Below are positions 1 through 44,969 of a stretch of 64,000 bases of DNA, piece after piece. The translations under genes and the position numbers were made by a program. The stretch comes from Patescibacteria group bacterium (lineage in GTDB: Bacteria > Patescibacteriota > Patescibacteriia > UM-FILTER-42-10), in the NCBI GenBank assembly GCA_041664365.1, contig JBAYKW010000002.1, positions 85,961-149,960 on the forward strand, in the 5' to 3' direction. The notes below the pieces were generated by a model that saw only the letters and a list, made by a program, of their open reading frames with translations, did no database searches and was not told the DNA's origin. The number at the start of each line of letters is the position of its first letter. Position 1 is the stretch's first letter.

Positions 1-2
1 AG

Positions 3-1031: not shown

Positions 1032-1143
1032 TCTGATTGACATCATGTACTGAATAAGTATAATAGAACCATGGGAGTCCTCTTGGCAGGGTCAGGGCAT
1101 TTACTCTGTAAATGCAGCTGGCACCGCCTGAACGGGGACTTTT

Positions 1144-2616: not shown

Positions 2617-2714
2617 AAATTAATTGACTTTTTAAGTAAATATTATATGCTTGATGTAGAAAAATGCGACTTTTTAAGTAATTTTGTTGTTGATTCAATA
2701 ACTATAATAAGTGT

Positions 2715-3920: not shown

Positions 3921-3943
3921 ATTTAAATATAAAGAATTTTATT

Positions 3944-5340: not shown

Positions 5341-6207
5341 ATGATCAAAAAAATCAGTTTAATAACACTATCCATCGGGGTAGTGTTATTTTTGGCAATT
5401 TATATTTTTGGTAAAAATAATTCAGAGCTGAAAATATATTTTCTGGATGTCGGTCAAGGGGATGCCATCCTGATTCGTACGCCGGAAAATCAGGATATTT
5501 TAATTGATGGCGGGCCGGGCAATATGGTTGTAAATGAAATAGGCAAATTCTTGCCGTTTTATGACCGTGATATTGAACTGATGATTCTGACGCACGCTCA
5601 TTCCGATCATGTTTCCGGGCTAGTGGAAGTGCTTAAACGCTACGAGGTCGATCAAGTGCTTTTTTCCGGGGACGTTATACATAATGCGCCAGATTATTTA
5701 GCATGGCTTGATATTATTTTAGAAAAATCAATTCCGCTAAAAGTTGCAACCTGTTGTGAAACATATAAATTGGGTGATCAGCTGGAATTACAAATCCTTT
5801 ATCCCTTCGAAGATTATTCCGGGAAAGAGCCTGAGGATCTTAATGAAAGCTCTGTTGTATCCCGTCTGGTGTATAAAGATAGAGAGTTTCTGTTTACTGG
5901 TGATGCGCCGATTGAGGTGGAGGAAAAGCTGATTGAAAAAATGATACATATTGAATCGGATATTTTGAAAGTTGGGCATCATGGCAGTAAATATTCCTCC
6001 GGTGAACTATTTTTGGATGCTGTAAGTCCTGACTATGCGGTTATTCAATCCGGGGAGGGAAATAGTTTCGGTCATCCGCATTTTAAATCAATTAATAATC
6101 TGCAAAAACTTAATATAGAAATAATTCGAAATGACCAGTGCGGGACAATTACTATGGAGACCGATGGTATTGATCTGGAACTAAGCAGCGAAAGGTGTGA
6201 TTTATGA
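5341..6207 (+). CDS. Membrane-anchored metallo-beta-lactamase domain protein. Corresponds to the C-terminal MBL domain of ComEC, here encoded as a separate gene.
   Basis: N-terminal TM helix, then YFLDVGQGDAILI (the typical start of the ComEC beta-lactamase domain). ILTHAHSDHVSGL is an HxHxDH zinc motif. KVGHHGS. Confidence 0.75.
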   Translation: MIKKISLITLSIGVVLFLAIYIFGKNNSELKIYFLDVGQGDAILIRTPENQDILIDGGPGNMVVNEIGKFLPFYDRDIELMILTHAHSDHVSGLVEVLKRYEVDQVLFSGDVIHNAPDYLAWLDIILEKSIPLKVATCCETYKLGDQLELQILYPFEDYSGKEPEDLNESSVVSRLVYKDREFLFTGDAPIEVEEKLIEKMIHIESDILKVGHHGSKYSSGELFLDAVSPDYAVIQSGEGNSFGHPHFKSINNLQKLNIEIIRNDQCGTITMETDGIDLELSSERCDL

Positions 6208-6719
6208 AGCGTTATAATATTCCAGGGTATGTGCATTTTGTGACCACGAGAACATATAACAGTGTCCCGTATTTTGGTGATGATGTTTGCTGTCAGATTT
6301 TGTTGGATGTTATCAATCGATTGAGATATGAATTAAAATTCCATCTGGTTGGGTTCGTATTTATTCCGAATCATGTGCATTTATTGCTAAAACTTTGGAT
6401 AGGTTCGAATTTATTCGAACCGGAAGCGAATGAATTCGCTTCTACCCGTGGTAATATATCTTACGTTGTTCAACGAATAAAAGGGACAAGCGCCAGAGAA
6501 ATAGATAGGTATCTTAAAAGAACAGGGAATGTTTGGCAAAAAAGCTTTTACGACTTCAACATCTATTCAGAAAGAAAATTTATCGAAAAACTGGACTATA
6601 TTCATAACAACCCGGTCAAGCACGGGTATGTGCAAAATCCGGAGGATTGGAAATATTCTTCATGGCATAATTACTACCAGGACGATGATTCAATAATGAT
6701 AATTGATAAAATTGATTGA
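6204..6719 (+). CDS. IS200/IS605-family Y1 (HUH) transposase of the REP-associated tyrosine transposase (RAYT, YafM-like) type.
   Basis: FIPNHVHLLL is the HuH motif. YIHNNPVKHGYV...W.YSSW is the conserved RAYT C-terminal catalytic-Tyr region. About 170 aa. Overlaps the upstream gene by 4 nt. REP-like hairpins follow it. Confidence 0.75.
   Translation: MKRYNIPGYVHFVTTRTYNSVPYFGDDVCCQILLDVINRLRYELKFHLVGFVFIPNHVHLLLKLWIGSNLFEPEANEFASTRGNISYVVQRIKGTSAREIDRYLKRTGNVWQKSFYDFNIYSERKFIEKLDYIHNNPVKHGYVQNPEDWKYSSWHNYYQDDDSIMIIDKID
6396..6445. repeat. Copy of the twin-hairpin miniature repeat, lying inside the RAYT ORF in frame. Encodes WIGSNLFEPEANEFAST.
   Basis: ttggataggttcgaatttattcgaaccggaagcgaatgaattcgcttct. 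Hairpin 1 is ggttcgaat-tt-attcgaacc and hairpin 2 is aagcgaat-ga-attcgctt. Near-identical to 6843-6900 and shares hairpin 2 with 49000 and 49955. Confidence 0.6.
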
Positions 6720-6737
6720 TTGTGATTATTGGTTAGC

Positions 6738-6757
6738 TCGGGTGACGTCACCCGAGA
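6738..6757. repeat. Perfect 20-bp palindrome ctcgggTGACGTCAcccgag (REP-like hairpin) immediately downstream of the RAYT gene.
   Basis: Self-complementary by inspection. Shares its TGACGTCA core with the palindromes at 28076-28107 and 28161-28178. Confidence 0.7.
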
Positions 6758-6842
6758 TACCCGAGGTCAGATTCATTCAAATCTTGATTATCATTGGATA
6801 GGTTCGAATTAATCAATTCTAGAATAATTATTACAGTATAGT

Positions 6843-6900
6843 TTTTGGATAGGTTCGAATTTATTCGAACCGGGCGCGAATGAATTTGCTTTTACCCAAA
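6843..6900. repeat. Intergenic copy of the twin-hairpin miniature repeat. A partial copy lies at 6793-6815.
   Basis: tttttggataggttcgaatttattcgaaccgggcgcgaatgaatttgcttttaccc is about 85% identical to 6396-6445. ttggataggttcgaat occurs three times between 6396 and 6860. Confidence 0.65.
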
Positions 6901-6917
6901 TAGGATATCATTCGCTA

Positions 6918-6961
6918 TAAAATAAATAAAAAACACCCGTCCCATGTTAGTCTGGGACGGG
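6918..6961 (-). terminator. Rho-independent terminator for the minus-strand GC-rich gene.
   Basis: Hairpin cccgtccca-tgttagtc-tgggacggg at 6936-6961. The flanking plus-strand A-run aaataaataaaaaac is a U-tract on the minus strand. Confidence 0.6.
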
Positions 6962-7007
6962 CCACGAATGGAAGGCTCAAGCCTTCAACGTGTCCGACGC
7001 GTGTCGG

Positions 7008-7535
7008 TTACGCGCGGATCACGCCGCTCGTGTTCGCCGTCTTGGCGTCCTGCGTCTTGGTCGTCTTCTTGGCCACCACGGCCGACTTGGGGACTTCGAG
7101 ACTGCTGGTGATGATCACGTGCTCGGCCAGGAGAATTCCACTGGCATCACGAGTTCTCCCCTCGAAGGCGCTGTGGTCATCTCGACTACTGCTCGTCGTC
7201 GCTTCGTGCTTCGTCAGTGACGCATAGTCCGTCGTCTGGAGGACCAGCGTCGAGTTCGCCTCGATGATCGCGGTCGCGCTGATGAACATGAGCACATCGG
7301 CGTTTTCCGCATACTTCGCATCCGCGATCGCCGTCGTCTTGTTGTTGACGTGCGCGATCGTGCCGTCGTTCTGCGCAAAGGCCCAAGCGAGGGTCGTTGC
7401 GCTGCTCAGCTCGTCGGTCCGCGGGGCCGTAGCATACGCGTTGCTCGCGCTCGCGTTGGCCGCCGCCGTCATGATCACGAGAGTCGCCATGATCGTCACG
7501 AAGACCGCGAATCGCGGCCGATGTAGTCGTCTCAT
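7008..7535 (-). CDS. Secreted protein of unknown function, encoded in a GC-rich islet.
   Basis: Start MRRLHRPRFAVFVTIMATLVIMTAAANASA is a signal peptide. GGAGG RBS 8 nt upstream (7544-7548). Region is about 60% GC, against an AT-rich background. Ala/Thr/Ser-rich. Confidence 0.55.
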   Translation of the reverse strand: MRRLHRPRFAVFVTIMATLVIMTAAANASASNAYATAPRTDELSSATTLAWAFAQNDGTIAHVNNKTTAIADAKYAENADVLMFISATAIIEANSTLVLQTTDYASLTKHEATTSSSRDDHSAFEGRTRDASGILLAEHVIITSSLEVPKSAVVAKKTTKTQDAKTANTSGVIRA

Positions 7536-8482: not shown

Positions 8483-8517
8483 TATAATACAAACAGCTTA
8501 TCAATAACGTAAATACA

Positions 8518-9225
8518 GTGGAAGAAGAACTAAGTCCGAGCGCGATTATACCGACGCCGGCACCAAAAAAGAAAAGATGGTTTAAGAGGTGGTGGGGAAT
8601 TACAATAATTGTATTTATTTTACTGACAATCGTATTTGCTGCGGTGTTAATATTCCAGATATATGCATTAATTAACAATCCTGAAAATGAAGTAAGTGAT
8701 TTAAAGGTTTATGATGTCAGCGCTGATAATGACCCGTATTTAGGTTCGCCGGATGCAAAAGTTAAAATTATCGCTTTTGAGGATTTTGAATGCCCATTCT
8801 GCGGTGAAGCATTCTCCATAATCAGAGAACTGACATCAACTTATGGTGATCAGATCCAATTTGTTTTTCGTGACTTTCCTATTGTCGAAAACCATCCGAA
8901 TGCGCCGAAAGCACATGAAGCGGCTGAATGCGCGAACGCACAAGGTAAATTCTGGCAGATGCATGATAAGCTGTATCAGAATCAGGAAAATCTATCCGTC
9001 GCTGATTTAAAACAATTTGCCATAGGAATCGGACTTGATGCAAAGTCATTTGATACATGTTTAGACAGCGGCCGTTTTGCAGCTGAAATAGAAAAAGACA
9101 GAACCGACGGTATCGCGGTTGACGTCAGGGGTACTCCAACCTGGTTTTTAAACGGTTATCGTATCGAAGGTGTAGTTCCGCTGGAAGACTTTAAGGCGTT
9201 AATAGATCTGTTACTAGCTAATTAA
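8518..9225 (+). CDS. DsbA-family thiol:disulfide oxidoreductase with an N-terminal TM anchor.
   Basis: TM helix, then FEDFECPFCGEAF (thioredoxin-fold CPxC active site) and the DsbA-like helical insertion. The cis-Pro region GTPTWFLNG is present. Confidence 0.75.
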   Translation: MEEELSPSAIIPTPAPKKKRWFKRWWGITIIVFILLTIVFAAVLIFQIYALINNPENEVSDLKVYDVSADNDPYLGSPDAKVKIIAFEDFECPFCGEAFSIIRELTSTYGDQIQFVFRDFPIVENHPNAPKAHEAAECANAQGKFWQMHDKLYQNQENLSVADLKQFAIGIGLDAKSFDTCLDSGRFAAEIEKDRTDGIAVDVRGTPTWFLNGYRIEGVVPLEDFKALIDLLLAN

Positions 9226-9341
9226 TCGGTTTAGTCCAATGATGTGATAAATTATCGGCTTTTTGTTTGGGGGTAATTTTTATTTGCCTCTGGTTTGTAA
9301 TCTGTTTCTGCTTAATTCATTAAAATTCCAATTACAAAATT

Positions 9342-9998
9342 ATGATTCAACTCAGCGAGCATTCTTTTAAAAAATTAATTATTGCGATGGCTGTTTACCT
9401 GACATCGCTATTTGCAGCAAATACACTCGGACTGAAAATAATGCCTTTTATTTTCGGTTCGCATCTCTCCGCGGCTGTTTTTTCTTTCCCGATCGTATTT
9501 TTGACCACGGATGTTATCGGAGAAATTTACGGCAAACGTGTTGCAAAGTTATTTGTACTGGCGGGTTTTGTCAGTACGGCAATATTTATTGGCTTTTCAT
9601 TTTTATCACTGGCTGTACCCTGGTCTCCGGATGGTGAGTGGGCAAAAGCGGGCTATAATCAGATTTTCGGGATTTCGATCCGAATAGCCATCGCTTCACT
9701 CGCCGCTTTCTTAATCGCGGAATATCAGGATGTGCTGTCGTTCTTTTTCTTCCGTGATAAACTGAAAATTAAATTATTTTGGTTGCGTTCTATATTATCT
9801 AATCTTTGGTCACAACTGCTGGATTCGGTAATATTCATGGTGATTGCATTCGCAGGTATTTATTCTACCGGCACACTGATCAGCATTATTATTTCCTGGT
9901 GGTTGTACAAAGTTGTTATGGGTATCCTTTATACGCCGCTTTCGTATATTGGCTTACATTTATTGCGTGAGCGAAAAGAAGAGCAATCAGTTAAATAA
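9342..9998 (+). CDS. Polytopic membrane protein. Resembles the YhhQ/DUF165 (VUT) queuosine-precursor transporter family.
   Basis: About 6 TM helices. FPIVFLTTDVIGEIYGKRVAKL matches the conserved DUF165 motif (FP..F...DvltEvYG). Confidence 0.45.
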   Translation: MIQLSEHSFKKLIIAMAVYLTSLFAANTLGLKIMPFIFGSHLSAAVFSFPIVFLTTDVIGEIYGKRVAKLFVLAGFVSTAIFIGFSFLSLAVPWSPDGEWAKAGYNQIFGISIRIAIASLAAFLIAEYQDVLSFFFFRDKLKIKLFWLRSILSNLWSQLLDSVIFMVIAFAGIYSTGTLISIIISWWLYKVVMGILYTPLSYIGLHLLRERKEEQSVK

Positions 9999-10012
9999 TT
10001 TTATACATAATT

Positions 10013-10384
10013 ATGAAAAAAAGTGTAGCGATTATTGGTGCGTCACAAGACCGGTCAAAATATGGCAACAAGGCGGTCCGGGCATATCTCAATCAAGGAT
10101 GGAAAGTTTTTCCAGTCAACCCGACCGAAAAAATGATTGAGGGATTAAAGGTTTATGGCTCAATATTGGAGATTAAAAAAAATATTGATCGTGTAAGCAT
10201 TTATCTGCCCCCGTTTATTGGTATGGGAATTATTGAGGACGTTGCTAAAAAAGAACCTAAGGAAGTATTTTTTAATCCCGGGTCTGAAAGTGATGAGTTG
10301 ATTATCAAAGCAAAAAAACTGGGAATTGACCCGTTATTAGCCTGTAGTATCGTTGATATTGATGTGCAGCCGGATACGCTCTGA
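10013..10384 (+). CDS. CoA-binding domain protein, YccU/YneT-like.
   Basis: SVAIIGASQDRSKYGNKAVRAYLNQGWKVFPVNP is the hallmark N-terminus of the small CoA-binding Rossmann proteins (PF13380). Confidence 0.65.
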   Translation: MKKSVAIIGASQDRSKYGNKAVRAYLNQGWKVFPVNPTEKMIEGLKVYGSILEIKKNIDRVSIYLPPFIGMGIIEDVAKKEPKEVFFNPGSESDELIIKAKKLGIDPLLACSIVDIDVQPDTL

Positions 10385-10461
10385 GGCGATATTTACAACT
10401 TTATTCAATTCATTTATACTATTAACACTATATAATTAATTACTAGAAGGGAATTAAATAA

Positions 10462-12708: not shown

Positions 12709-15700
12709 ATGTATATAAGCCAAAAACGCATACTTTTAGCCTTTTCCGCGCTATTATTCATAATATCCCTCATAACACCCGGTTCAGTTAATGCGGCATA
12801 TGGAGATACTACTACGTATGTCGGAAAGATATACGATGGTGACGGGGGTTCGGCGGTCAACGCCTACTTTGATTTTCCGGAAGATATTACTGTGGATTCA
12901 TCCGGTAATTTTTATATTGCCGATACGTATAACAACGTAATCAGAAAAATAAACACATCTAACATTGTATCAACAGTTGCCGGCACCGGATCTTATGGTG
13001 ACGTAATCGGTTCAAAATCAGTAGCCGAATTTGCTCTGCCACGCGGAGTAGCAGTGGATGGTTCCGGTAATGTCTATGTTGCTGACACGGGTAACAATAA
13101 AATAAAGAAAATTTCTGCCGGCGGATCGGTGACTACGCTGGTCAGTGCTGATCTAAGTAACCCTGAGGGCGTTTCTGTATACGGGAGTACACTTTATATT
13201 GCCGATACGGGAAATAATGCGCTGAAAAAAGTTTCAACATCCGGCGGTACAGTAACAACATTAACATCCGGATTAAGCAGTCCAAAAAAAATGGCGATCA
13301 ATTCATCCGGATCTGTCATTTATGTTGCAAGCAGCGGTGATTATAAAGTTGTCAGTGTCGGAGCGTCAAGCGGAACCATAACGACAATCGCCGGGTCAGG
13401 CACGCCAGGGTACAAGGAGGGTGTCGGATCTGACGCTCAGTTTGAAAATATTTGGGGTGTCGCGCTTGCTGATGATAACACGTTGTTTGTTTCGGATGGT
13501 GACGGGTATACGGATCTGATTAGAGAAATTAATCTGACAACAAAAACCACCTCGGCATTTGCCGAGGATACGAACATGGCTTCAATCAATTATCCTTCAG
13601 GGCTGGTTTCTTATGGAGATTATATTTATGTTTCAAATATGGGGATCGGTACGATTGAAAAATTCAATAATATTTCGGGTGATGCGGAAAGAGGAGCCAG
13701 TGTTACATTCGCTGGGAAAGAACGTTTTGGCAATAAAAACGGATCATCATCCGCCGCATTATTCGGCAGACCTTACGACATGGTTTTATCCGCTGACCGA
13801 AAATATATTTATGTGGCGGAGAATAATAAAATAAGGAAGATAACTGTGGCAACTGGCGCAGTCTCCCATGTAATCGGGAGTAGCGTTGATAATTACCGTG
13901 AGGGCACAGATAACAACCCGGCTGTCAGATTCAGCGCCATCCAGGGGATCACAATCAATTCCGATGGAACTGCATTATACGTGGCCGACCGGTGGAATAA
14001 CCGGATTAGGAAGGTTGATCTTACGGCTTCTCCTTTTGAGTCATCATTAATCTCAGGAGCCGGTTTAATCAATACGACCGGTACAGATGATAACGGATAT
14101 CAGGAAGGAACTAAATGTGTCGGGGAATATGAATTGGATGTTGACGGTTGCGCTTACTTCAAAAGCCCGTCGGGAATTGTTATTTCTCCGGACAATGCAT
14201 ATTTGTATGTTACAGACAGCGGGAACAACAGAATAAGAAAAGTCCGCATCTCGAACGGTCAGACCAGTTTAATCGCTGGATCCGGTGTGGAAGGATTTGC
14301 GGACGGCACCGGAGCGTCGGCGAAGTTTAACAGGCCATTCGGCATTACTATTGATTCAGACGGCAAGAACCTTTATGTTGCGGACACCAATAACCATCGC
14401 ATCAGAAAAATAGTAATTACAACCGGTGTGGTATCAACGGTGGCTGGATCCGGAAATGCCGGCTACGTGGATGCAATCGGAACAAAGGCAGTATTCTCTT
14501 ATCCGGAATATGTGAAATGGGCTCCGGACGGCAATCTATATGTAACAGAGGTTGGCTCGCATCGCATACGGGTTATCAATACAAGCACGGGAGTAACAAA
14601 GCTGGTCGCGGGATCAGGCAATAGAGGTTTTAAAAATGGCGACAAGAGCCTGGCTGAGTTTAATAATCTTAAAGGGGTGGCGGTTGATCTGATCGGCAAA
14701 CGTCTATATGTGGCTGATTCATGGAATGATCTGATTCGTTCTGTTGATATAACAGGAGATGCGCCATTCACAAATCCCGCACCACAAATCTCCGCGTCTT
14801 ACCCGGATGTTCAGGAAATAGCTGGAAGCACGTCCGAAACCAAAATGATTCTTGTTTCTGGCAGTAATTTCCGCCATGGAGCGACGGTTGCTTTTGGCGA
14901 ACATAATGCCAACGCGGCGTATATCCAATCCAGCGGAAAAATAGCGGTTGAAATTCCTTTTGGCAATATGGCAGGGGGGTATTATGACATTAGTGTAACA
15001 AATACAGACGGACAGGTAGGGATTCTGGAGCGGGGATTTGCCATATCAGTGGGAGGGGAAATACCGAAAATCGAGCATACAATTGACGGACCGGTTCCAT
15101 TTACCGGTGACCGGCCGGTTGTAGCTGGTGGAGGATTTTTTACCCATGATGAAGCGTATCGGGGCGGTTTCTTTTCCGCATCAGCTGATTTGAGCGGTGA
15201 TAGCAGAGCGGAAATTGTTGTTGGTGCGGGGGAGGGTTTTGGACCACAAGTGAAAATATTTGACGCTGATGGAAATCTTCTGGCATCTTTCTTCGCGTAT
15301 GCTACTCATCTGCGTTCCGGTGTCAGGGTGGCGATCGGGGATGTTGACGGCAATGGTACAAAAGAAATTATCACAGCCCCGGGACCAGGCGGGAGACCGC
15401 ATATTAGAATTTTTAATTCTGATGGTACTTTATATGACACTGGGTTCTTTGCTCTGGACGGGTTGTTTAAGGGTGGTGCATTTATTGCCGGAGGGGACGT
15501 CAACGGAGATGGTAAAGATGAGATTGTAGTTACGGCCGGTCCGGGCGGTGGAGCACAAGTAACAGTGCATAATGCAAAAGGTACAATTCTGGCAAATTTC
15601 TTTGCCTATGACAAAAATACGTTCAGATACGGGATAATGCCCATTACCCTGGATTTCGATAATGATGGCCGCTTCGAGATTCTTACCGGGCCGGTTACAG

Positions 15701-16056
15701 GCGCACCGCATATTCAAATGTTTAGCATCCAGCCTAATCTGGTAAAAAAATTAAATCCGGGGTTCTACGCCTTTAGTCCGAATTATCGAGGTGGTGTTTC
15801 ACTGACCGGCGGTGATGTTGACGGAGACGGCAAGGACGAGATTATCGTAGGTGTGGGTTCCGGCGCTGTACCGATTGTCCGTGTATTCAATAAAACTGCA
15901 ACCGAAATACTGAAGGAATTTCTGGTCTATAGTGAGAGTTTCCAAAGTGGTGTTAATATCAGTTCCGGTGATACGGATGCCGACGGACGGGATGAACTGC
16001 TTGTTTTACCCCGGGATGACGGCGGACCTAACTTAAGAATAATTGACGCGGATTAA
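12709..16056 (+). CDS. Large secreted protein with an NHL-repeat beta-propeller, an IPT/TIG-like Ig domain and C-terminal FG-GAP repeats.
   Basis: Signal peptide ending VNA. Repeated G..YVADTGNN.I.KI units are NHL repeats. ISASYPDVQEIAGS..ILVSGSNFRHGATVAFGE is IPT/TIG-like. Repeated GDVDGDGKDEIIV / GDVNGDGKDEIVV units are FG-GAP/VCBS-like calcium-binding repeats. Confidence 0.7.
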   Translation: MYISQKRILLAFSALLFIISLITPGSVNAAYGDTTTYVGKIYDGDGGSAVNAYFDFPEDITVDSSGNFYIADTYNNVIRKINTSNIVSTVAGTGSYGDVIGSKSVAEFALPRGVAVDGSGNVYVADTGNNKIKKISAGGSVTTLVSADLSNPEGVSVYGSTLYIADTGNNALKKVSTSGGTVTTLTSGLSSPKKMAINSSGSVIYVASSGDYKVVSVGASSGTITTIAGSGTPGYKEGVGSDAQFENIWGVALADDNTLFVSDGDGYTDLIREINLTTKTTSAFAEDTNMASINYPSGLVSYGDYIYVSNMGIGTIEKFNNISGDAERGASVTFAGKERFGNKNGSSSAALFGRPYDMVLSADRKYIYVAENNKIRKITVATGAVSHVIGSSVDNYREGTDNNPAVRFSAIQGITINSDGTALYVADRWNNRIRKVDLTASPFESSLISGAGLINTTGTDDNGYQEGTKCVGEYELDVDGCAYFKSPSGIVISPDNAYLYVTDSGNNRIRKVRISNGQTSLIAGSGVEGFADGTGASAKFNRPFGITIDSDGKNLYVADTNNHRIRKIVITTGVVSTVAGSGNAGYVDAIGTKAVFSYPEYVKWAPDGNLYVTEVGSHRIRVINTSTGVTKLVAGSGNRGFKNGDKSLAEFNNLKGVAVDLIGKRLYVADSWNDLIRSVDITGDAPFTNPAPQISASYPDVQEIAGSTSETKMILVSGSNFRHGATVAFGEHNANAAYIQSSGKIAVEIPFGNMAGGYYDISVTNTDGQVGILERGFAISVGGEIPKIEHTIDGPVPFTGDRPVVAGGGFFTHDEAYRGGFFSASADLSGDSRAEIVVGAGEGFGPQVKIFDADGNLLASFFAYATHLRSGVRVAIGDVDGNGTKEIITAPGPGGRPHIRIFNSDGTLYDTGFFALDGLFKGGAFIAGGDVNGDGKDEIVVTAGPGGGAQVTVHNAKGTILANFFAYDKNTFRYGIMPITLDFDNDGRFEILTGPVTGAPHIQMFSIQPNLVKKLNPGFYAFSPNYRGGVSLTGGDVDGDGKDEIIVGVGSGAVPIVRVFNKTATEILKEFLVYSESFQSGVNISSGDTDADGRDELLVLPRDDGGPNLRIIDAD

Positions 16057-17220: not shown

Positions 17221-17298
17221 TGGCGGGCTCGACCGGATTCGAACCGGCGATCTTCTCCGTGACAGGGAGACGTGTTAGGCCATCTACACCACGAGCCC
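17221..17298 (-). tRNA. tRNA-Asp (anticodon GUC) with encoded CCA.
   Basis: Reverse complement GGGCTCGTGGTGTAGATGGCCTAACACGTCTCCCTGTCACGGAGAAGATCGCCGGTTCGAATCCGGTCGAGCCCGCCA folds as a cloverleaf. The 7-bp acceptor stem is GGGCTCG/CGAGCCC. Anticodon stem TCTCC/GGAGA with loop CTGTCAC. T-loop is TTCGAAT. Confidence 0.85.
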
Positions 17299-17313: not shown

Positions 17314-17892
17314 CTAGTAGACTAGCGCCCCTAATACTACAACAACAAATAAAATTTGTAAACCTAGGGCGAATTTGGGGGAAATATCGCCTTTTTTGAA
17401 ATACCTGGTCAGGAGTGTATGCAACCAAATATGAAAACGCTCAAACTTATTTAACCATTTCCATCTGACAAAATAATTAATGCTGCTAATAATATCAAAA
17501 ATTACCGCTCCCAGTATTCCCCAGAATAGCAATCCCAGATCCATTTTTTTTGAAAATATTAAAACAGCAAGCACGGAAAGTGAACAAGTGGCATCGATGA
17601 AAGCAAATAGGAAGAATTCTCTTTTTTTATCAATTTTGGCATGAAGCGGTTCTTCCATATCATTACCCATCAGAATATTGTCTCCGTGTGGCAGGATATC
17701 TATTATAATGTGAGAAATAAGAGATACACTAAAAATGGCCGGGACTGAAGGTATGTTCTGGCTAATAACGGCACCGGTAATTACATGAGTTGTGAACCAC
17801 ATACGAAAGACTATAACACAAAAAAGTGCAGTAGTTAAGTAAATGCACTTGCCAAAATCAACATAATGTGATATACTAACGAAGTAAAACAA
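17314..17892 (-). CDS. Polytopic membrane protein, possibly a second YdjM/DUF457-like metal-dependent hydrolase.
   Basis: Six TM helices. THVITGAVIS and ISHIIIDILPHGD are His/Asp motifs that echo the 7916 ORF. Confidence 0.35.
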   Translation of the reverse strand: MFYFVSISHYVDFGKCIYLTTALFCVIVFRMWFTTHVITGAVISQNIPSVPAIFSVSLISHIIIDILPHGDNILMGNDMEEPLHAKIDKKREFFLFAFIDATCSLSVLAVLIFSKKMDLGLLFWGILGAVIFDIISSINYFVRWKWLNKFERFHIWLHTLLTRYFKKGDISPKFALGLQILFVVVVLGALVY

Positions 17893-18012
17893 AAATAAAC
17901 ATAAGTTAAATATGAATCCATGATTCTATTTTTATTAAATAAGATAGAAATCGAAAAATGCCCTCTCTTTTTGAGTTAGGGTATTTATTTTTAAATTATT
18001 TCAAAAAACAAT

Positions 18013-18342
18013 ATGAATAATAATACAAATCAGCAGACCGGGGAAAATTTAGAGGAAGAAGCGCGCGCGCTTGGGAAAAAGATAGTGCTTTTATTACAAT
18101 CATCCGATCTACCGGAAGATGTACAGATTTCAATAATTCAGCTGATACCAGATATGACTTTGGAACAAATAGACGAATTGGTTAGTTTATTGACCGAAAA
18201 TGTAGCGCGTGGTGGTGATATAGATAAAGAACTGGCAATGAAGCTCAGTGAGGTTAAAGAAAAATATGATTCTAAACGGGATGATTTGTCCGGTTCTATT
18301 ATGAAAGATCTTGATAATATTGAAAAAGAAATTGACCAATAA
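18013..18342 (+). CDS. Small acidic, predicted all-helical protein of unknown function.
   Basis: 109 aa. No TM helix or signal peptide. Rich in E/D/K/L (heptad-like). Confidence 0.5.
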   Translation: MNNNTNQQTGENLEEEARALGKKIVLLLQSSDLPEDVQISIIQLIPDMTLEQIDELVSLLTENVARGGDIDKELAMKLSEVKEKYDSKRDDLSGSIMKDLDNIEKEIDQ

Positions 18343-18353
18343 CTATTAATAAA

Positions 18354-18701
18354 ATGCAAGCAACTCCTGATTCAAAATTACTTGTTAAGGCGGCGGAAAT
18401 GATTAAAAGTGCTCCGCTGGACGCTGATTTGAAATTGATGCTAATAGAAATGATATTACGTATTGATGATGATAAACTGAAAGAGGTTTTGGCACAGATC
18501 GAACAATATACAGAAGGTAGTAATGAAGACACTCAAAAGCTACGTGCGGTCTTATTTGACATAAAGAAAAATTATGCAGCAAAAATGCAGGAACTAGAAG
18601 TTAAAACAGAACAAGAGCTTCAGACGCTAGAGGCTGAAATAGGAAATGAAGAAGGTGCTGAAAAGATTAAACAAATTCAAAAAAAGATACAAGACATTTA
18701 A
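18354..18701 (+). CDS. Small acidic, helical protein; apparent paralog of the 18013 ORF.
   Basis: 115 aa with similar composition. LIEMILRIDDDKLKEVL and QIEQY loosely parallel IIQLIPDMTLEQIDELV in the upstream ORF. Lies immediately upstream of the giant acidic ORF. Confidence 0.5.
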   Translation: MQATPDSKLLVKAAEMIKSAPLDADLKLMLIEMILRIDDDKLKEVLAQIEQYTEGSNEDTQKLRAVLFDIKKNYAAKMQELEVKTEQELQTLEAEIGNEEGAEKIKQIQKKIQDI

Positions 18702-18711
18702 TTATAAAAAT

Positions 18712-21700
18712 ATGCCAGAACCAACAAGCCCATATAATCCAAGAAATTCATCTATCATTGATGCGGATTTTAATGATATAAAAGATGAGAATGATATTGT
18801 TCCAGGGGGAGATCAAGCTCGAGGGGAGGAATCCGGTACGTCTAATTCGCAAGCTACGCCGGCAGCGGATCGAGGTGGGAGTAAATTGAGAAGAATTTTT
18901 TCTAGAAAAAAAGGTGCGCCAGTATCTGCAGATGCAGTAACGCCGGATCCTGTTGTCCCAACTCCGGATGGTAGTGGAGCGCCTGAAGCAGAGACGGTTC
19001 CAGAATTAAATGCTACGGCAAGAGATTATTTGATGTTTTTGGATATGATTCCTGAAAATGCAGATGATGTTTCGCCTGAAACAATAGCACAAGCAAATGC
19101 CTATGCAACAACACTGGAATCCATCAAGGATGATCCAAATTTTGAACCGATTGTTACTCAAATCCGAGAGAAATTTAATGATATAATGTATCGTTTACAT
19201 CTGGAACCCAGTACCCACAGCAAGAGCGAGTCTTGGACGTACTGGGATATGGCTAAACAGAAATATATAAATGACCATCCGGATCAACAGGACACCAGAT
19301 ATCGTATTGGGGACCCGCTTAAAGACGAAGTGCTTCAGGATCAAATTGCTAGCAGGCAACTGGGATGGGAAATATATAGCAAAAATTCTGTTGGTGTAGA
19401 TCATGGCGACGGATCCGGACTTGTTAGAAAATTTCAGGAGAACGTGTCAATGAATATATTGGATAAAGATAATCCCAATTATCCGGAGATAATGGAATTG
19501 CTAAAGAAAGATGCTAAACCGGAAAACGACACTTTAAGTTCCGTGGATTTAACCCGACTAGGAGCACTAATCAGGCAAAATTTAGGAGAAGAGAATGTCA
19601 GTGTACCTGAAAAAAAGGGTGCAATTTTGGGTAGAATGTGGAAAGGTGAATACATAAGTCAAAAAGAAAAAGATCATGCGAGCGCATGGGAGGAGACCGC
19701 CTGGAACGCCGGTAAATTTGCAGCTGGAGTTACTAAATTATTTGGTGCCGGAACGGCTTTTCGACTTGCTGATCGATGGGCAAAAAGAAATGCCAGATTA
19801 AGCGAAGCTGGAAGGATTATGGGGATACTTGCAGAGGAGAAAAATTTGAGGAAGAGATTAGATTCAACGACAGATGAAGATGAGAAAAAACAGATCAGGG
19901 CGAGATTAGATCAGCTGAATGTAGGTGAATCAGAAACAGGAGATGTTAGAATTCAACAAAGAATGAATTCAATGAGAAAAGAAATTAAAGAATCCAAATT
20001 TCTTTCTCAAGAAAAAAAAGTAAAGCTGGAAGAAAGACTTAGATTATTGGAAGAAAGGTGGATCAAAGGTGAAGCAGAAATACATGCTCAAATGGCGGCA
20101 GATATTGATATTGAACTTGATCGCCGTGACGCTGAAAAAGCAAGAAGGTTAAATGCCTTACAACATGCAATTGAAGGTGAGATCAGCAGTGATTTGGATG
20201 AAAATGTAGGGGAAAAAGCAAAGAAGATGGATTATGTTAAAGAGACGGTGGTGGGTGGAGTGGGTGTTGTGTCAGGTGCATTTACAATTCGTCTCGCCGC
20301 AAGTGGTGCAATTGCTTTAGGTGAAAGATTCAAAAATCTACACGATGCAAAAAAAGATGGTGAAAGAGTAACACCAAAAGAACTGATTGTTGATGGGCTC
20401 TGGGATATGGCTCGGGAGATGTTTGGCCAAGGCAGACTGAAAGGTATGGAGAAAGGAAGAAAGAAAAATATGGCTGTAGCGGGTACTTGGGCAAAGGCAA
20501 TGGTACCGGCAATGATTGCATTGGCTGGTTTTGATGAAGTGAGAGACTATGGTTCGGGTACATTCAGTAAATCAATTCAGCATGCGATAGAAAGGTCAGA
20601 AGAGGTTCAGAAAGCATGGACTGCTGTAATGAACGGTAGCGGTGATGCTGCTAAAGCCGTTTTATTAACACTAAATTGGCAAGAAACATTCCACCGAACT
20701 TTTGGATTATTTAAAGGTTTACATGGTCATGCACCGGATGCTGCACAATCAGAGAATTTGGCAAAGGGCGTGGCTCCTTCAGCAGGGGCATTCACTCCAG
20801 AAGACACTGCGGCACTTAATACACCGCACGCAGAACACTCGGGTGCAATATCAGCGGCGGAAGCTAGCAGAGTTGCCCAGGTTGCTGAGGTAGAGCCTAC
20901 ACCAGGACCGATTACAGCGGAGACTTTGAAATATGACGCACTTAAAAATGCGGGAGTCCAAGGGGGAGCGGTTCCTGACGCGCAGGTGGAACCCAGCGCT
21001 CCGGCTGAAACCAATATTCCTAAATCCGGTGAAAATTTGAGTGCACCGCGTGAGGCAGTTGCTTCAAATGCCGTGGCAGGAACAGATTCTATCCCTCCTA
21101 AGGTAGAACCGCTGGTTGGAGCAGAACAACCTACATCCTGGATGTTAAATGAACAAAGAATAATAAATTTAGAATCAAGCTTTGGAGTAGATTCAGCGGA
21201 TGGTATAACTCCTGAAGATGTGCAAAAGGTAGCAGCTCAATTGCAGGGAGTAAATGCCGATTCGGCGGATGAACTGCTTAAATCCTGGCAGGGCACGCAT
21301 CCCGAAATTGCTAATTCTATTCAGGAGTCTCGAGCGCTTGTTGGATTAGAGAAAGCATTAGGAGTAAACTCATTTGAAGGCCAGGTTTCGCCGGAAGAAT
21401 TGAAAAAGGTTATTGCCGAACTTGCCGGAGAAAATAAAGAAAACGCAGACAAGCTTTTAGCAGCCTGGGAGAGTAAAGGACTGATTGGACACGATGCTGT
21501 TTTAGCCGGACGTTTCCCAATTGAACACCCGTCAATTGAGCATGCCGGATTCCAGACGGAAACCGCGGATGCCAAAGTTGACCTTGCGCTTGATCTAGGC
21601 AAGGAAGGGGCTCCTAAATTTTTGGAGCAGGTGTTTTACCGTATGGCGCTGGATGATGCAAATATCGGTGGTGAGATTACGAACCTGGAAGGAGCTAGAA

Positions 21701-23538
21701 TTTTAAATGTCGGTGCAAACATGACTGCGCTGTCAGAAGGGCATGATATAGCAGGAGTTTCTGCGGAAACCTTTGCAAAATACGTAACGGTTGCGGATGG
21801 AAAATTAGCAATCACAAACTTTGCCGGGTTTCATGAGGAAGTTCTGTCAAAATTAACGGCTCATGCGGAGCAACTTATTACAGCAGATAATGTAGGTAAC
21901 TCCGGTGCAATAGAATATTTAAATAATATTAAAAATGAAACATGGGCGGATATGGCTAAGCCGATTGGTGCGGAAGTAAATCTGGATCAGGCGCAGATTG
22001 AGCATGCAGAAGCCCGTGCGTTTAACGATTTGGTTGATGATACGGGAGAGCAAACTGGTCTTGATAAAAACATTACTAATATTGAAGTCAACGACGAAAA
22101 TACTGGATCATTTAAACTCGCGGGTGAACTTGTACCTGTAGATCACGGTATGATATCTGGAATCGGCGATACGCATTTTGATCAACCAATACCACTGGAC
22201 AGCGAAGCCGGGCATGCGAAACTGCTGGAAGAGGCAAATAGGATTGAGGCACAAAGGATTGAAGCGAATAATTTGGATGACACTGACGATGATATTATTG
22301 GGGATGCGAGTGTTGGAACTGATGCAGATGATGACGATGAATTGTTGGACTTGAAAACTACCGATAATGCAGTAACGCCTGATAATAATACCACTGATAC
22401 CAAACCAGCCGAAAGCACTGACAGCGCGCGCGAAATTCCACGCAGCAGTCTCAACCCTATTCCTAAGACCGAAATACCGGAAGGTATGACGATCAAAGCC
22501 ACGCCGGAAGCGGATCATTTTATGAGGCAGAATGGCATAAGAATTTTTAACGGGCAAATTATCGGTGATAAGTTGCTTCATAAGATTGACTTTATACCTG
22601 AACCGGGGCCAGATATGAATGCCGGTACGACACAAGCAGTGGATTTTAAGATGACGGAAAATGGAAATATGAGAGTTATTGTTACAGATACGGATGGTTT
22701 AAAAGCTATACAAGAAGTCACATCCGCGGGCAAGATAATACATATTCAGGGCGCAGAGAATCTAGGCACAACGCCACCTGAAATCCCGGTTGCACCTGAC
22801 GCAAGTTCAGCAGCTGAAACAGCCGGTGATCAGTTAGAAACAGTAAAAACACCAGACGGAATTACAGCGCGTTTTACTTATGATAATACCGGTAATGTGA
22901 CGGGTGTTAATGTAGAAGGATCTACAAGCGGTGAATCCGGTTCTCTGCAGGATAATTTCAGGGAAAAAATTAAAAGCGCTTGGGAAGCGGCAGGTAAAAA
23001 AGGTGATATTCAATTAAATATTGATAAAGTTGAAATGGAAGCCGGGAAGATTGATCTGCATCGCAGTGTATTGAGTTCAATGCAAGCAGCTGGTCAGGGT
23101 AATTCGCCAGAAGCGGAATTCATGAGACAGCAGATTGAAAGAGCGATCGAGCACACAGAAAAAATATATGGAGATGTATTCAAAAATTCACCGGCTGAAA
23201 GCATCCCTACCAACATAGAATCAAGTGTAGAAATTCCGGCATCACCGCTGGATGTCAAACTTGCCATGGAAAACCTGGTAACCGGTATTCTATCAGATAT
23301 GGACAATGTTTCGCCGGAAGTATTAAAGGCGCTTGACGGTATTGGTCTGGATGATATTGCAAAAATTAACAACACGACTTTGCTGGAAAATATTAGGGAA
23401 GGAGCCAGGGGAGTGATTGAAGAAATTAAAGCTAACCCTCCTTATGGATCCGATACGGAAGTGTTAGCAGCTGTTACTAGGGGGAATAACGCGATTATTG
23501 AAGTGATTGATGCCAGGTTGAGTAAACTGAAAGCATAA
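18712..23538 (+). CDS. Giant (about 1609 aa) acidic, low-complexity, repeat-containing protein of unknown function. No TM helix or signal peptide.
   Basis: Continuous ORF. The start at 18712 directly follows the stop of the upstream gene; an alternative in-frame ATG lies at 18646. Coiled-coil stretch EKKVKLEERLRLLEERWIKGEAEIHAQ. Roughly 50-aa tandem repeats (GITPEDVQKVAAQLQGVNADSADELLKSWQG / GQVSPEELKKVIAELAGENKENADKLLAAWESKG). D/E-rich tracts such as DDTDDDIIGDASVGTDADDDDELLD. Confidence 0.6.
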   Translation: MPEPTSPYNPRNSSIIDADFNDIKDENDIVPGGDQARGEESGTSNSQATPAADRGGSKLRRIFSRKKGAPVSADAVTPDPVVPTPDGSGAPEAETVPELNATARDYLMFLDMIPENADDVSPETIAQANAYATTLESIKDDPNFEPIVTQIREKFNDIMYRLHLEPSTHSKSESWTYWDMAKQKYINDHPDQQDTRYRIGDPLKDEVLQDQIASRQLGWEIYSKNSVGVDHGDGSGLVRKFQENVSMNILDKDNPNYPEIMELLKKDAKPENDTLSSVDLTRLGALIRQNLGEENVSVPEKKGAILGRMWKGEYISQKEKDHASAWEETAWNAGKFAAGVTKLFGAGTAFRLADRWAKRNARLSEAGRIMGILAEEKNLRKRLDSTTDEDEKKQIRARLDQLNVGESETGDVRIQQRMNSMRKEIKESKFLSQEKKVKLEERLRLLEERWIKGEAEIHAQMAADIDIELDRRDAEKARRLNALQHAIEGEISSDLDENVGEKAKKMDYVKETVVGGVGVVSGAFTIRLAASGAIALGERFKNLHDAKKDGERVTPKELIVDGLWDMAREMFGQGRLKGMEKGRKKNMAVAGTWAKAMVPAMIALAGFDEVRDYGSGTFSKSIQHAIERSEEVQKAWTAVMNGSGDAAKAVLLTLNWQETFHRTFGLFKGLHGHAPDAAQSENLAKGVAPSAGAFTPEDTAALNTPHAEHSGAISAAEASRVAQVAEVEPTPGPITAETLKYDALKNAGVQGGAVPDAQVEPSAPAETNIPKSGENLSAPREAVASNAVAGTDSIPPKVEPLVGAEQPTSWMLNEQRIINLESSFGVDSADGITPEDVQKVAAQLQGVNADSADELLKSWQGTHPEIANSIQESRALVGLEKALGVNSFEGQVSPEELKKVIAELAGENKENADKLLAAWESKGLIGHDAVLAGRFPIEHPSIEHAGFQTETADAKVDLALDLGKEGAPKFLEQVFYRMALDDANIGGEITNLEGARILNVGANMTALSEGHDIAGVSAETFAKYVTVADGKLAITNFAGFHEEVLSKLTAHAEQLITADNVGNSGAIEYLNNIKNETWADMAKPIGAEVNLDQAQIEHAEARAFNDLVDDTGEQTGLDKNITNIEVNDENTGSFKLAGELVPVDHGMISGIGDTHFDQPIPLDSEAGHAKLLEEANRIEAQRIEANNLDDTDDDIIGDASVGTDADDDDELLDLKTTDNAVTPDNNTTDTKPAESTDSAREIPRSSLNPIPKTEIPEGMTIKATPEADHFMRQNGIRIFNGQIIGDKLLHKIDFIPEPGPDMNAGTTQAVDFKMTENGNMRVIVTDTDGLKAIQEVTSAGKIIHIQGAENLGTTPPEIPVAPDASSAAETAGDQLETVKTPDGITARFTYDNTGNVTGVNVEGSTSGESGSLQDNFREKIKSAWEAAGKKGDIQLNIDKVEMEAGKIDLHRSVLSSMQAAGQGNSPEAEFMRQQIERAIEHTEKIYGDVFKNSPAESIPTNIESSVEIPASPLDVKLAMENLVTGILSDMDNVSPEVLKALDGIGLDDIAKINNTTLLENIREGARGVIEEIKANPPYGSDTEVLAAVTRGNNAIIEVIDARLSKLKA

Positions 23539-23563
23539 TAAAAAGCAGGGCTCAAAATAATAA

Positions 23564-23598
23564 GTAGGCGCGAATACGTATTCGCGCCTACTGTTTTT
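23564..23598 (+). terminator. Rho-independent terminator, probably bidirectional (ends the giant ORF and the minus-strand GC-rich gene).
   Basis: gtaggcgcgaat-acgt-attcgcgcctac followed by tgtttttgg. An A-run upstream serves the opposite strand. Confidence 0.65.
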
Positions 23599-23734: not shown

Positions 23735-24583
23735 CTACTCGGTGTCGTTCTCGGGGAACGTCACCGGCTGGGTGTTCGCCTTCGCATTGGCGACGAATTT
23801 CGCCGCATGCTTGGCGTTCTCTGGCGACCCATTGTACTTGGCGTACTTGAGGGCCTCCATACAGGCCGCGATATTCACGCGGCCGGCGTTTGCGGTGTTC
23901 AGCAGAATTTCGAACTTGGAATCTGCGGAGGTCTGCCAGGTCTTGATCTCGGCGATCTGGGCCTGCAGGTCGACGACCTCCTCGTTGAGGTTGCCGATGA
24001 TCTGGGCCAGTTTGACGTCAGCGTCGGCGCCGGCGTTAATCTTCTCCTCCAGGTCGGCCCGCAGGGGATTGATCGCGGCCCGCACGCGCGTGTCGATCTC
24101 GATGCGCTGCTTGGCAGCGGCGCGACGTTCGTTGACCTGGAACCACATGGAATCCAGGACTTCATCCAGGGTTGCTTTCTCGTCGAAGGTCTTGAAGCCG
24201 TACCTTTCGACCCAACGGTTGTTGAGCCAGCCCAGCTTCTCCTCTTGACTTCCGGTGGAATCGTCAGCCGCCCACTGCATGCTCTCCTCGAAGGTGAGCT
24301 TGCTGACGGCCTTGGCCCAAACGGCTTCCCGTTCGGACTGCTTCTTGGCCGCGAGCTTCCTGAGCTCGGCTCTGGCAGCTGCCTTCTGCAGGTCGAGCGT
24401 GGTCTGGGCAGTGAATACAGCCTTCAGACTGTCGGCCTGGGTGATCTTGCCGGCGGCCTGCAGCTGGAGCACTTGCTCCTGCTGTGCGGTGGTCAGTGTG
24501 ACCTCCGGCGTCGCGGCGAAGACGTTGGCGATGGACAGGGCGGCCATCAGGGTGACGGCCATGGTCAGAGTGCGGAACTTCAT
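23735..24583 (-). CDS. Secreted Ala/Gln/Glu-rich helical protein, encoded in a GC-rich islet.
   Basis: Signal peptide MKFRTLTMAVTLMAALSIANVFA. RBS gggaggaaacgaagATG. Region is roughly 60% GC. The overlapping opposite-strand ORFs are GC-driven artefacts. Confidence 0.55.
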   Translation of the reverse strand: MKFRTLTMAVTLMAALSIANVFAATPEVTLTTAQQEQVLQLQAAGKITQADSLKAVFTAQTTLDLQKAAARAELRKLAAKKQSEREAVWAKAVSKLTFEESMQWAADDSTGSQEEKLGWLNNRWVERYGFKTFDEKATLDEVLDSMWFQVNERRAAAKQRIEIDTRVRAAINPLRADLEEKINAGADADVKLAQIIGNLNEEVVDLQAQIAEIKTWQTSADSKFEILLNTANAGRVNIAACMEALKYAKYNGSPENAKHAAKFVANAKANTQPVTFPENDTE

Positions 24584-24643: not shown

Positions 24644-24958
24644 TCACTTGCCGAAGAGTCTCGAAAACAGCTTCATGATCAGTATGATGCAGATCGCCAC
24701 AACGTTACCGAAGGCCATTATTATCAGAGCTATTATAGCTGCCTCCATAAAAAATGTATAAGTTGATGGGACCGCATCTCTATCGATCACCCGAATTGTG
24801 ATCGTCATGGAATCGGCCGTGGCGACGTTGCCGGAGTTCAGGATCTGCTCTAGCTGAGCGTTGGTCAATGTGACCTCCGTGTCGGCAGAAGCGGTGACGG
24901 TGATGAACATGACGGCCATCAGGATGACGGCCATGAGAATCGTGCGGAACTTGAACAT
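24644..24958 (-). CDS. Short secreted/membrane protein; N-terminal paralog of the 23735-24583 gene.
   Basis: MFKFRTILMAVILMAVMFITVTASADTEVTLTNAQLEQ aligns with MKFRTLTMAVTLMAALSIANVFAATPEVTLTTAQQEQ. C-terminal TM helix. RBS gggaggaaaataATG. Confidence 0.5.
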   Translation of the reverse strand: MFKFRTILMAVILMAVMFITVTASADTEVTLTNAQLEQILNSGNVATADSMTITIRVIDRDAVPSTYTFFMEAAIIALIIMAFGNVVAICIILIMKLFSRLFGK

Positions 24959-42960: not shown

Positions 42961-43785
42961 ATGAAAAATCCTTACGAAAGTTATCCGGCTATAATCACAA
43001 AAATAGTATTAGATGCTCCTGACACCAGAGGCTTCACTTTAAAGTTCAAAGATAAAAAACGTCAGAGTAATTTTGGTTTTATTCCGGGACAGTTTATAGT
43101 CGTTGGTTTGCCCGGGATTGGTGAAATTCCGGTTGGGATAAATTCTGCAACGACGGAAAAGAAATTTGTCCAGATAACTGTTCGCGGAGTTGGGAAAGTC
43201 AGCCGAGCCATCCAGCAGAAAGCAGTCGGTTCGACGATCTATATCCGCGGACCGTACGGCAACGGCTGGCCGATGAAGGAAATTGAAAAACGGGATTTAC
43301 TGGTAATAGCCGGCGGGCTTGGGATAATCCCGCTCAAACCTTTGATTGACGAGGCTTGCCGAAAGGACTGGGGACGTCAGAACCAGGTACAGGTTTTTTA
43401 CGGTTCAAGGAATTTTAAAAACCTTTTATTTGAAACGCAATATAAAAAATGGTGTACTTTTCATGATACGCAGATAGTTCTGGATATGGCCGGTCCGCGC
43501 TGGCATGGCGAGGTCGGCAATATTACCGATCTTCTGGCAAAACACAGTACGCCGAAAAATGCGATTGTCACTGTCTGCGGTCCGCCGATTATGTATAAAT
43601 TTGTAATTCCCAAACTGCTCGAGAAAGGTTACAAGCCGGAAGATATTTACCTTTCACTGGAGCGAAAAATGTACTGTGCAATCGGAATGTGCGAGCACTG
43701 CGCGATCGGAGAAAAATATGTCTGCAAGGACGGCCCGGTATTTAGCTTAGCCGAGATTAAGGATATGCCGGAGGCTCTGGAATAA
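42961..43785 (+). CDS. hydG: FAD/NAD(P)-binding oxidoreductase with a C-terminal 2Fe-2S cluster (sulfhydrogenase gamma / PyrK-like).
   Basis: FIPGQFIVVGLPGIGEIPVG (FAD-binding), VCGPPIMYKFV (NAD-binding), C-terminal CAIGMCEHCAIGEKYVCKDGPVF Cys cluster. Confidence 0.65.
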   Translation: MKNPYESYPAIITKIVLDAPDTRGFTLKFKDKKRQSNFGFIPGQFIVVGLPGIGEIPVGINSATTEKKFVQITVRGVGKVSRAIQQKAVGSTIYIRGPYGNGWPMKEIEKRDLLVIAGGLGIIPLKPLIDEACRKDWGRQNQVQVFYGSRNFKNLLFETQYKKWCTFHDTQIVLDMAGPRWHGEVGNITDLLAKHSTPKNAIVTVCGPPIMYKFVIPKLLEKGYKPEDIYLSLERKMYCAIGMCEHCAIGEKYVCKDGPVFSLAEIKDMPEALE

Positions 43786-43789
43786 ATAT

Positions 43790-44962: not shown

Positions 44963-44969
44963 AATAATA

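Follow-up and report, generated by a model that had tools for sequence, protein, structure and literature searches.

What do two small acidic proteins do beside the giant acidic protein encoded immediately behind them? The question is raised by three genes, here called A, B, and C, at positions 18013 to 23538 of a 64,000-nucleotide (nt) stretch of DNA from a Patescibacteria group bacterium (GenBank assembly GCA_041664365.1, contig JBAYKW010000002.1, positions 85,961 to 149,960, forward strand), which was analyzed as a whole and is referred to as the window (64 kb). The initial annotation had described an operon that encodes a pair of small, mutually related acidic proteins and an acidic giant, and this description holds, as do the positions of the three open reading frames (ORFs), the last of which ends at 23538. 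We found that the trio is a vertically inherited module specific to Patescibacteria, and that A and B belong with one region of the giant, module H, in what was ancestrally a protein containing H and a second region, domain D2. The three genes and the elements that delimit them are the following.

18013 to 18342, plus strand: gene A, 109 amino acids (aa), isoelectric point (pI) 4.2.
18354 to 18701, plus strand: gene B, 115 aa, pI 4.7.
18712 to 23538, plus strand: gene C, 1608 aa, pI 4.7.
17803 to 18012, plus strand: intergenic region 5' of A, 210 nt, with the only promoter-like site found.
23563 to 23592, no strand assigned: terminator hairpin, 13 bp, GC-rich, with T runs on both strands.

The gaps measure 11 nt between A and B and 10 nt between B and C, so that the packing is tight, as initially described, although not entirely without spacers. 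Because of these short gaps, the single promoter-like site upstream (TTGCCA-17-TATACT with TG, at 17849 to 17877), and the strong terminator directly after C, we conclude that A, B, and C form a single operon. The hairpin 3' of C is a bidirectional terminator, common to C and the convergent gene. No Shine-Dalgarno-like sequence was found ahead of the starts of A, B, or C. The automatic ORF listing begins C at 18646 (1630 aa), running into B; the true start is the ATG at 18712 (MPEP...), which is common to the homologues and to the NCBI model. The resulting protein is 100% identical to MFA6391619.1 (P0001 in our set), annotated as a hypothetical protein of a Patescibacteria metagenome-assembled genome.

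The trio was intact in all the related genomes and contigs retrieved (L001 to L015 and L136; at least 10 related loci), with C ranging from 1557 to 1964 aa, and the frameshifting of C in relatives, named in the initial annotation as a possible objection, was not seen. In the comparison with L015, where synonymous sites were saturated, nonsynonymous divergence was 0.17 for A, 0.20 for B, and 0.35 for C, and the dN/dS ratios, read against that saturated dS, were at most ~0.10, ~0.11, and ~0.16, respectively. All three genes are under purifying selection. Their rates of change differ, however. Between the window and L004, identity was 97% for the ribosomal protein L20 and 84% for ArgRS, compared with ~72% for A, ~65% for B, and only 42 to 48% for C. 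A and B are thus better conserved than C, which evolves much faster and in a more modular way than either the small proteins or the housekeeping proteins, its modules having been gained, lost, and shuffled.

We then compared the two small proteins with each other. In A, the conserved residues are G21-K23, L33-P34-E35, P46-x-M-(S/T)-x-E-Q-I-D-E-L, and R66-G-G, and the C terminus is a heptad-like tail. BLASTP detected no similarity between A and B, but alignment of the two families by hhalign gave a probability of 95.8% (E 6.5e-9), colinear over 84 columns, with residues 26 to 109 of A aligned with residues 14 to 97 of B. In addition, the hidden Markov model (HMM) of each family matched all members of the opposite family (E 1e-10 to 5e-5) and none of the ~150 other proteins of the set, many of them helix-rich. 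On these three grounds, A and B are old, distant paralogues, visible at the profile level only, the pair going back to an old duplication, as the initial annotation had supposed from their composition.

The giant itself is a mosaic. Module borders in C were set from an alignment of six homologues together with module HMMs.

18712 to 18993, plus strand: leader (aa 1 to 94), variable, Pro/Gly/Ser-rich, lacking in most homologues.
18994 to 19608, plus strand: domain D1 (aa 95 to 299), member of a large unannotated family.
19609 to 20718, plus strand: module H (aa 300 to 669), a long coiled coil, three conserved Gly/Ala-rich hydrophobic helices, and a basic loop.
20719 to 21135, plus strand: linker (aa 670 to 808), Pro/Ala/Glu-rich, weakly conserved, modelled with a pLDDT of <30.
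21136 to 21498, plus strand: module R (aa 809 to 929), two tandem helix-loop-helix repeats.
21499 to 22281, plus strand: domain D2 (aa 930 to 1190), the best-conserved part of C, GARILNVGANMTALSEGH.
Between D2 and M (aa ~1189 to 1244): Asp-rich linker.
22444 to 22746, plus strand: module M (aa 1245 to 1345), preceded by the Asp-rich linker.
22804 to 23211, plus strand: YD-like/helical module (aa 1365 to 1500), a single subthreshold YD/RHS-like motif plus helices.
23224 to 23538, plus strand: CT (aa 1505 to 1608), conserved C-terminal domain, ending in ...RLSKLKA.

The initial picture of a huge disordered protein must therefore be abandoned: there are at least five conserved modules, D1 is modelled with a pLDDT of 93, and D1 and D2 are large independent families. 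The 50-aa tandem repeats seen at first correspond to the two copies in R (aa 817 to 860 and 876 to 920; 42 to 44% identity, E ~1e-10), which are ~45 aa long and recur with a 59-aa period; relatives have from one to three copies, always N-terminal to D2. Similarly, the poly-Asp tracts reduce to an Asp-rich stretch (aa 1189 to 1213) that contains one DDDDE, a modest feature. Module M has been shuffled, standing in another position in the orthologues P0002 and P0004. CT was also found in P0030 to P0032 and in P0035, and the YD-like and CT modules accompany D2 in more distant relatives. As reported initially, C contains neither a Walker A nor an HExxH motif. An AlphaFold2 (AF2) model of aa 95 to 1190 (1096 residues, six-sequence alignment) was poor (pLDDT 53, pTM 0.26), and its comparison with the Protein Data Bank (PDB) by Foldseek was uninformative.

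Module H deserves closer attention. Its hydrophobic helices lie at aa 334 to 356, 517 to 540, and 587 to 606, flanking the coiled coil. C was said to have no signal peptide and no transmembrane (TM) helix; the first statement is correct, while the second has to be refined, since two conserved hydrophobic helices do exist (aa 517 to 537 and 587 to 607; Kyte-Doolittle hydropathy ~1.5) but have positive summed Hessa insertion free energies (+4.3 and +5.2 kcal/mol, versus -0.8 to -3.4 for true TM helices of neighboring genes). In distant relatives, Ser, Thr, Arg, and Lys occupy positions within the hydrophobic helices. Classical TM segments were rejected on account of these positive insertion energies, and the H helices are small-residue packing or amphipathic helices. 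Being conserved and yet unfavorable for insertion, they make a binding partner plausible.

Which part of the mosaic do A and B go with? Distant loci that encode D2 proteins provided the answer.

L136: giant P0030 (1687 aa), H-R-D2 without D1; homologues of A and B upstream.
L137: giant P0043 (942 aa, ~22% identical to C), H-D2; homologues of A (107 aa, E 8e-25) and B (112 aa, E 1.5e-14).
L139/L140: giant P0067 (2432 aa), H (E 5.8e-23) and D2; homologue of A (E 6e-17) and a 72-aa coiled-coil protein.
L141: giant P0055 (1093 aa), H-D2; homologue of A (E 3e-22) directly upstream.
L138 (P0058) and L142 (P0072): D2 without H; neither A nor B.
L143 (P0106): D2 without H; neither A nor B, and a DUF5663-like protein of 112 aa in the place of A.

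A was present at all four distant loci with H in the giant and absent from all three that have D2 but no H. Broadened HMMs of A and B found no match in ~120 loci with D1 only. Synteny at L139/L140 is as in the window (rplT-rpmI-infC-smpB-argS, DsbA/LGT), with an ArgRS only 43% identical. The upstream genes at the distant D2 loci thus tie A and B to H and mark D1 as a later addition: the ancestral large protein consisted of H, R, D2, and the tail, and D1 was fused N-terminally in the clade of the window. The linkage of small and large proteins proposed initially survives deep divergence and follows the H module. At L139 (positions 5945 to 7347), the A homologue is directly preceded, on its own strand, by genes for a Band_7/SPFH protein and a membrane protein of 175 aa.

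In order to place the two conserved domains, we ran an exhaustive HMMER search of 1.84 billion representative sequences with aa 95 to 1190 of C, which matched 338 proteins at an E value of ≤1e-3 (152 of them below 1e-10). The matches fall into two independent families, D1 and D2, both of them large and without Pfam annotation. Among the listed proteins, 70 have D1 alone, mostly at the extreme C terminus of proteins of 200 to 1900 aa or as a standalone domain of ~200 aa, and ~70 have D2 alone or as H-(R)-D2; the complete order D1-H-R-D2 is limited to the close clade of the window. D1-only and D2 genes were also considered as operon partners, but this was rejected, since apart from fusions of the two domains no D2 was found less than 10 kb away from a D1. 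One such fusion is independent of the one in the window (L072, positions 4 to 4155, and L077, positions 1 to 4203; 1384 to 1401 aa, with D1 at aa ~85 to 290 and D2 at aa ~830 to 1070). When 33 D1 proteins and 31 D2 proteins were scanned with Pfam, the few known domains that turned up beside D1 or D2 did so sporadically and singly (PP2C, P-domain, FtsK-gamma, YkuD, and TelA).

Twelve residues of D1 are invariant (W175, W178, D179, K182, Q183, Y197, P202, R215, G218, E220, S277, and G284), and this invariance, including that of D179, K182, Q183, R215, and E220, suggests a defined binding or active site. The AF2 model of D1 from a 26-sequence alignment is confident (pLDDT 93.4, pTM 0.89), helical with a small beta hairpin, and Foldseek found no match to it in the PDB (best E 2.2, TM score 0.25) or in BFVD. 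Pattern scans recovered D1 in 98 stretches of Joint Genome Institute (JGI) metagenome contigs, of which the best 80 were kept as loci, and in 41 IMG/VR viral contigs. The viral proteins carry the D1 core (~residues 22 to 127) within proteins of ~340 aa or within giants of 2,700 to 6,000 aa. One giant begins with a PhageMin_Tail tape-measure domain (L124), and another combines the core with a PARP-like region and a MuF/portal-like region that matches a PHROG "portal protein" (L113). These D1-bearing viral giants fit the theme of polyvalent, virion-delivered proteins described for phages and conjugative elements (PMC5512222). None of the GenBank phages has D1. D2 was found in cellular sequences only: a trimmed-alignment scan of the viral contigs detected none, nor was it found in plasmids, Pfam, or the PDB. 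On a 120-kb viral contig (L101, positions 8513 to 10399), a 341-aa D1-core protein is encoded directly 3' of a DNA methyltransferase gene, and four loci (L027, L043, L075, and L099) contain unbroken ORFs of 5,700 to 6,800 aa, mostly unannotated, with the D1 core in mid-protein.

How, then, might the module work? From the sequence features and the linkage to H, we tentatively put forward the possibility that A and B serve as a helical partner of H, bound to its Gly/Ala-rich helices and shielding them, and thereby keep C soluble or deliver it to the membrane. A and B would pair through their C-terminal helices and bind H; by covering its poorly soluble small-residue helices, they would hold the giant in solution or bring it to the membrane, where H would dock or insert peripherally. 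The acidic, linker-separated modules D1, R-D2, M, and CT could then be displayed as interaction or catalytic domains. Judging by its composition, C is probably associated with the membrane. Since C evolves in a fast and modular way, a role at the envelope or in interaction with a host cell is somewhat more likely than a core cytoskeletal one.

Several observations count against this shielding role. C has no N-terminal signal peptide or hydrophobic N terminus and no convincing TM helix by Hessa free energy. No gene for secretion, pilus, division, or cytoskeleton adjoins the module. B is missing or unrecognizable in L139 and L141. The co-occurrence of A with H amounts to seven distant loci, several of them on short contigs, and among close relatives the entire neighborhood is syntenic, so that gene order there is little informative.

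Much of the same evidence can be read in terms of export, which we consider rather unlikely. C would be an exported effector and A and B its secretion chaperones, either of the Lap/WXG type known from type VII secretion systems (T7SS) or of the type known from type III (T3SS) or type VI (T6SS) secretion systems, with the machine encoded elsewhere (e.g., a patescibacterial type IV secretion system [T4SS]); C would go to the surface or into a host bacterium, where D1 and D2 would act. The pair of small acidic proteins directly upstream, following the hydrophobic-helix module, would suit such a system, as would the D1 core in injected phage virion proteins (the tape measure protein of L124 and the MuF/portal-like and PARP-like giant of L113), the fast, modular evolution of C, and the conserved CT with its basic tail. 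Patescibacteria are, moreover, described as T4SS-bearing epibionts (PMC12102498). However, neither the 64-kb window nor the related loci contain a gene for a secretion ATPase or channel, A and B lack a WXG, LXG, Lap, or tetratricopeptide repeat (TPR)-chaperone signature, and no immunity-like gene lies 3' of C, which has no signal peptide. Also unlike typical effector islands, the module keeps one chromosomal site between housekeeping genes even in deeply diverged lineages.

Alternatively, C could be a large acidic coiled-coil organizer that stays in the cytoplasm as a scaffold or acts as a hub at the pole, comparable to HubP/FimV or DivIVA-type hubs, with H as a peripheral anchor and A and B as adaptors, performing a housekeeping role in division, polarity, or envelope organization. 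Vertical inheritance at a conserved locus beside rplT-infC, VanZ, and LGT/DsbA, at a distance where ArgRS is only 43% identical, is consistent with this, together with the lack of a signal peptide, the acidic composition, the long helices, and the Band_7/SPFH gene directly upstream in L139. Nevertheless, we regard a scaffold as unlikely: housekeeping proteins of the same genomes are far better conserved than C, the domains of C are gained, lost, and shuffled, D1 is common to C and phage-injected proteins, and neither a filament-forming feature nor a likeness to any known cytoskeletal or hub family was found.

A more far-reaching version of the shielding and export proposals would take the trio as the visible part of a new, Patescibacteria-specific way of dealing with a giant protein that inserts into the membrane or is exported. 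A and B would be the chaperone pair that recognizes H, the cargo would carry two new domain families, and D1 (a new fold, with the invariant D-K-Q...R-H-x-G-W-E) would be an effector-type domain that phages also inject; as a complete scheme, this strikes us as very doubtful. Finally, a domesticated phage tail module, with A and B as tail assembly chaperones and C as the tape measure protein, is extremely improbable, for although the gene order and the Gly/Ala-rich hydrophobic helices recall the G/GT-tape measure arrangement and a bona fide tape measure protein of a viral contig (L124) contains the D1 core, C matches no tail family of PHROGs or Pfam, A and B have no frameshift-linked overlap, genes for tail, head, or integrase are lacking in the vicinity, the core domain D2 is not in viral contigs, and D1 is a late addition unlinked to A and B. 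A prophage tail remnant was likewise rejected (no PHROG match, no viral D2, and no phage neighbors).

The genes flanking the trio encode a diacylglycerol (DAG) kinase, a membrane protein, VanZ, L20, L35, IF3, SmpB, and ArgRS. Divergent from A (17314 to 17802, minus strand) is a gene for a 162-aa multipass membrane protein with an H..D..PHGD motif and no Pfam match, which is kept in close relatives and also occurs at the distant locus L143 (168 aa). The sole Rfam match, a tRNA gene (RF00005, 63.6 bits; 17224 to 17298, minus strand), lies 3' of it. On the other side, the convergent gene 3' of C (23735 to 24583, minus strand) encodes 282 aa with an N terminus resembling a signal peptide and is accompanied by a second convergent gene (24644 to 24958, minus strand) for a 104-aa protein with a C-terminal TM helix. 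The first ~50 residues of these two proteins are alike (50% identity, E 3e-11), and both are kept in relatives; in L008 and L010, the strand antisense to the pair is annotated as genes instead.

Elsewhere, the window holds a second giant ORF (52850 to 61771, plus strand; 2973 aa) with Kelch repeats and fibronectin-III/purple-acid-phosphatase-N-like domains, and an 1115-aa protein (12709 to 16056, plus strand) with a hydrophobic, signal-peptide-like N terminus and NHL and FG-GAP repeats, found in the same position in all relatives. A cluster at 41947 to 48973 encodes a 4Fe-4S protein, an FAD/NAD oxidoreductase, an Ldh_2 dehydrogenase, and a NiFe-hydrogenase large subunit. Apart from an IS200-like Y1 transposase (6204 to 6719, plus strand) and a Fic-domain protein (33174 to 34073, plus strand), the window is otherwise housekeeping.

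Much of bacterial diversity belongs to the Patescibacteria, and uncharacterized genes are common in genomes of this candidate phyla radiation (CPR). To our knowledge, little has been learned about the construction of their envelope or their dealings with host cells. Here, three "hypothetical proteins" are resolved into a defined module in which the pairing of A/B with H is specific and can be checked. Two large domain families without annotation, D1 and D2, come with it; D1, whose model is confident and had no structural counterpart in these searches, occurs both in patescibacterial chromosomes and within giant virion proteins of phages. Should A and B prove to be paired chaperones of a giant that is exported or sent to the membrane, this would point to a lineage-specific route of protein handling; if D1 were catalytic, it would be a new enzyme fold used by phages and ultrasmall bacteria.

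The initial statement that the trio belongs to no described family or system was borne out by scans of A, B, and C against Pfam, NCBIfam, PHROGs, and the defense-system models of PADLOC, none of which gave a significant match. Among the sequences of the PDB, nothing was matched by the profiles of A, B, D1, D2, aa 95 to 1190 of C, or full-length C. The only YD-repeat match in C covers 26 residues (16.6 bits versus a cutoff of 22), and TIGR01643 scored 13 bits against a cutoff of 15.8; with one subthreshold match, no repeat array, and no RHS core, an RHS/YD-repeat protein was rejected. An S-layer protein or adhesin was rejected as well (no hydrophobic N terminus, positive helix insertion energies, and no Pfam surface domain). 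At the level of sequence comparison, no relationship of A, B, or C to any described family was detected, which does not in itself demonstrate a new mechanism.

Among known systems, polyvalent proteins share with C the D1 core, found inside viral giants of 2,700 to 6,000 aa with MuF/portal-like, PARP-like, or tape-measure regions (PMC5512222), whereas C is chromosomal and vertically inherited, has no known polyvalent-protein domain, and has no mobile-element genes at its locus. A DUF5663-like protein takes the position of A at L143, and a DUF5663 gene lies near the D2 giant at L142; however, neither A, B, nor the distant A homologues match DUF5663 (PF18908), and a relationship of A to this family was rejected when hhalign gave 0.2% probability against two DUF5663-like proteins. 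Pfam, which we take to include the LPD families of the polyvalent-protein paper, likewise has no family that matches D1.

In phages, the tape measure protein is preceded by the tail assembly chaperones G/GT. The resemblance lies in the gene order, in the composition, in the Gly/Ala-rich hydrophobic helices of a long helical protein, and in the D1 core of a real tape measure protein. However, A and B are distinct genes with a gap of 11 nt, each with its own stop codon and with no programmed -1 frameshift, and there is no homology; the trio occupies a conserved chromosomal locus and has no head, tail, or lysis neighbors.

The LXG effectors of T7SSb have small helical Lap partners, and WXG100 proteins also occur in pairs. 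In these features the trio is similar, with A and B paralogous, acidic, ~100 aa long, presumed helical, and directly upstream of a large multidomain protein to one region of which they are tied. The differences are nevertheless considerable. No WXG100, LXG, DUF3130, or DUF3958 match was obtained at an E value of ≤1 for A, B, or C or for distant homologues of A and B, and instead of a W-x-G turn, A has R-G-G (66 to 68) and B has T-x-x-S (53 to 56), with no conserved Trp. There is no EssC/EccC-type ATPase or membrane component in the 64-kb window or the related loci, and the partner module H, which lies in the interior of the giant or near its N terminus, has hydrophobic helices and is not an LXG helical domain.

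The Eag chaperones of T6SS and the class II chaperones of T3SS shield hydrophobic helices of effectors and translocators. Although neither a DUF1795 nor a TPR signature was seen in the trio and genes of a T6SS or T3SS are lacking, the logic that we propose for it would, by analogy only, be the same as in these systems: a small acidic partner covering hydrophobic helices until the membrane is reached.

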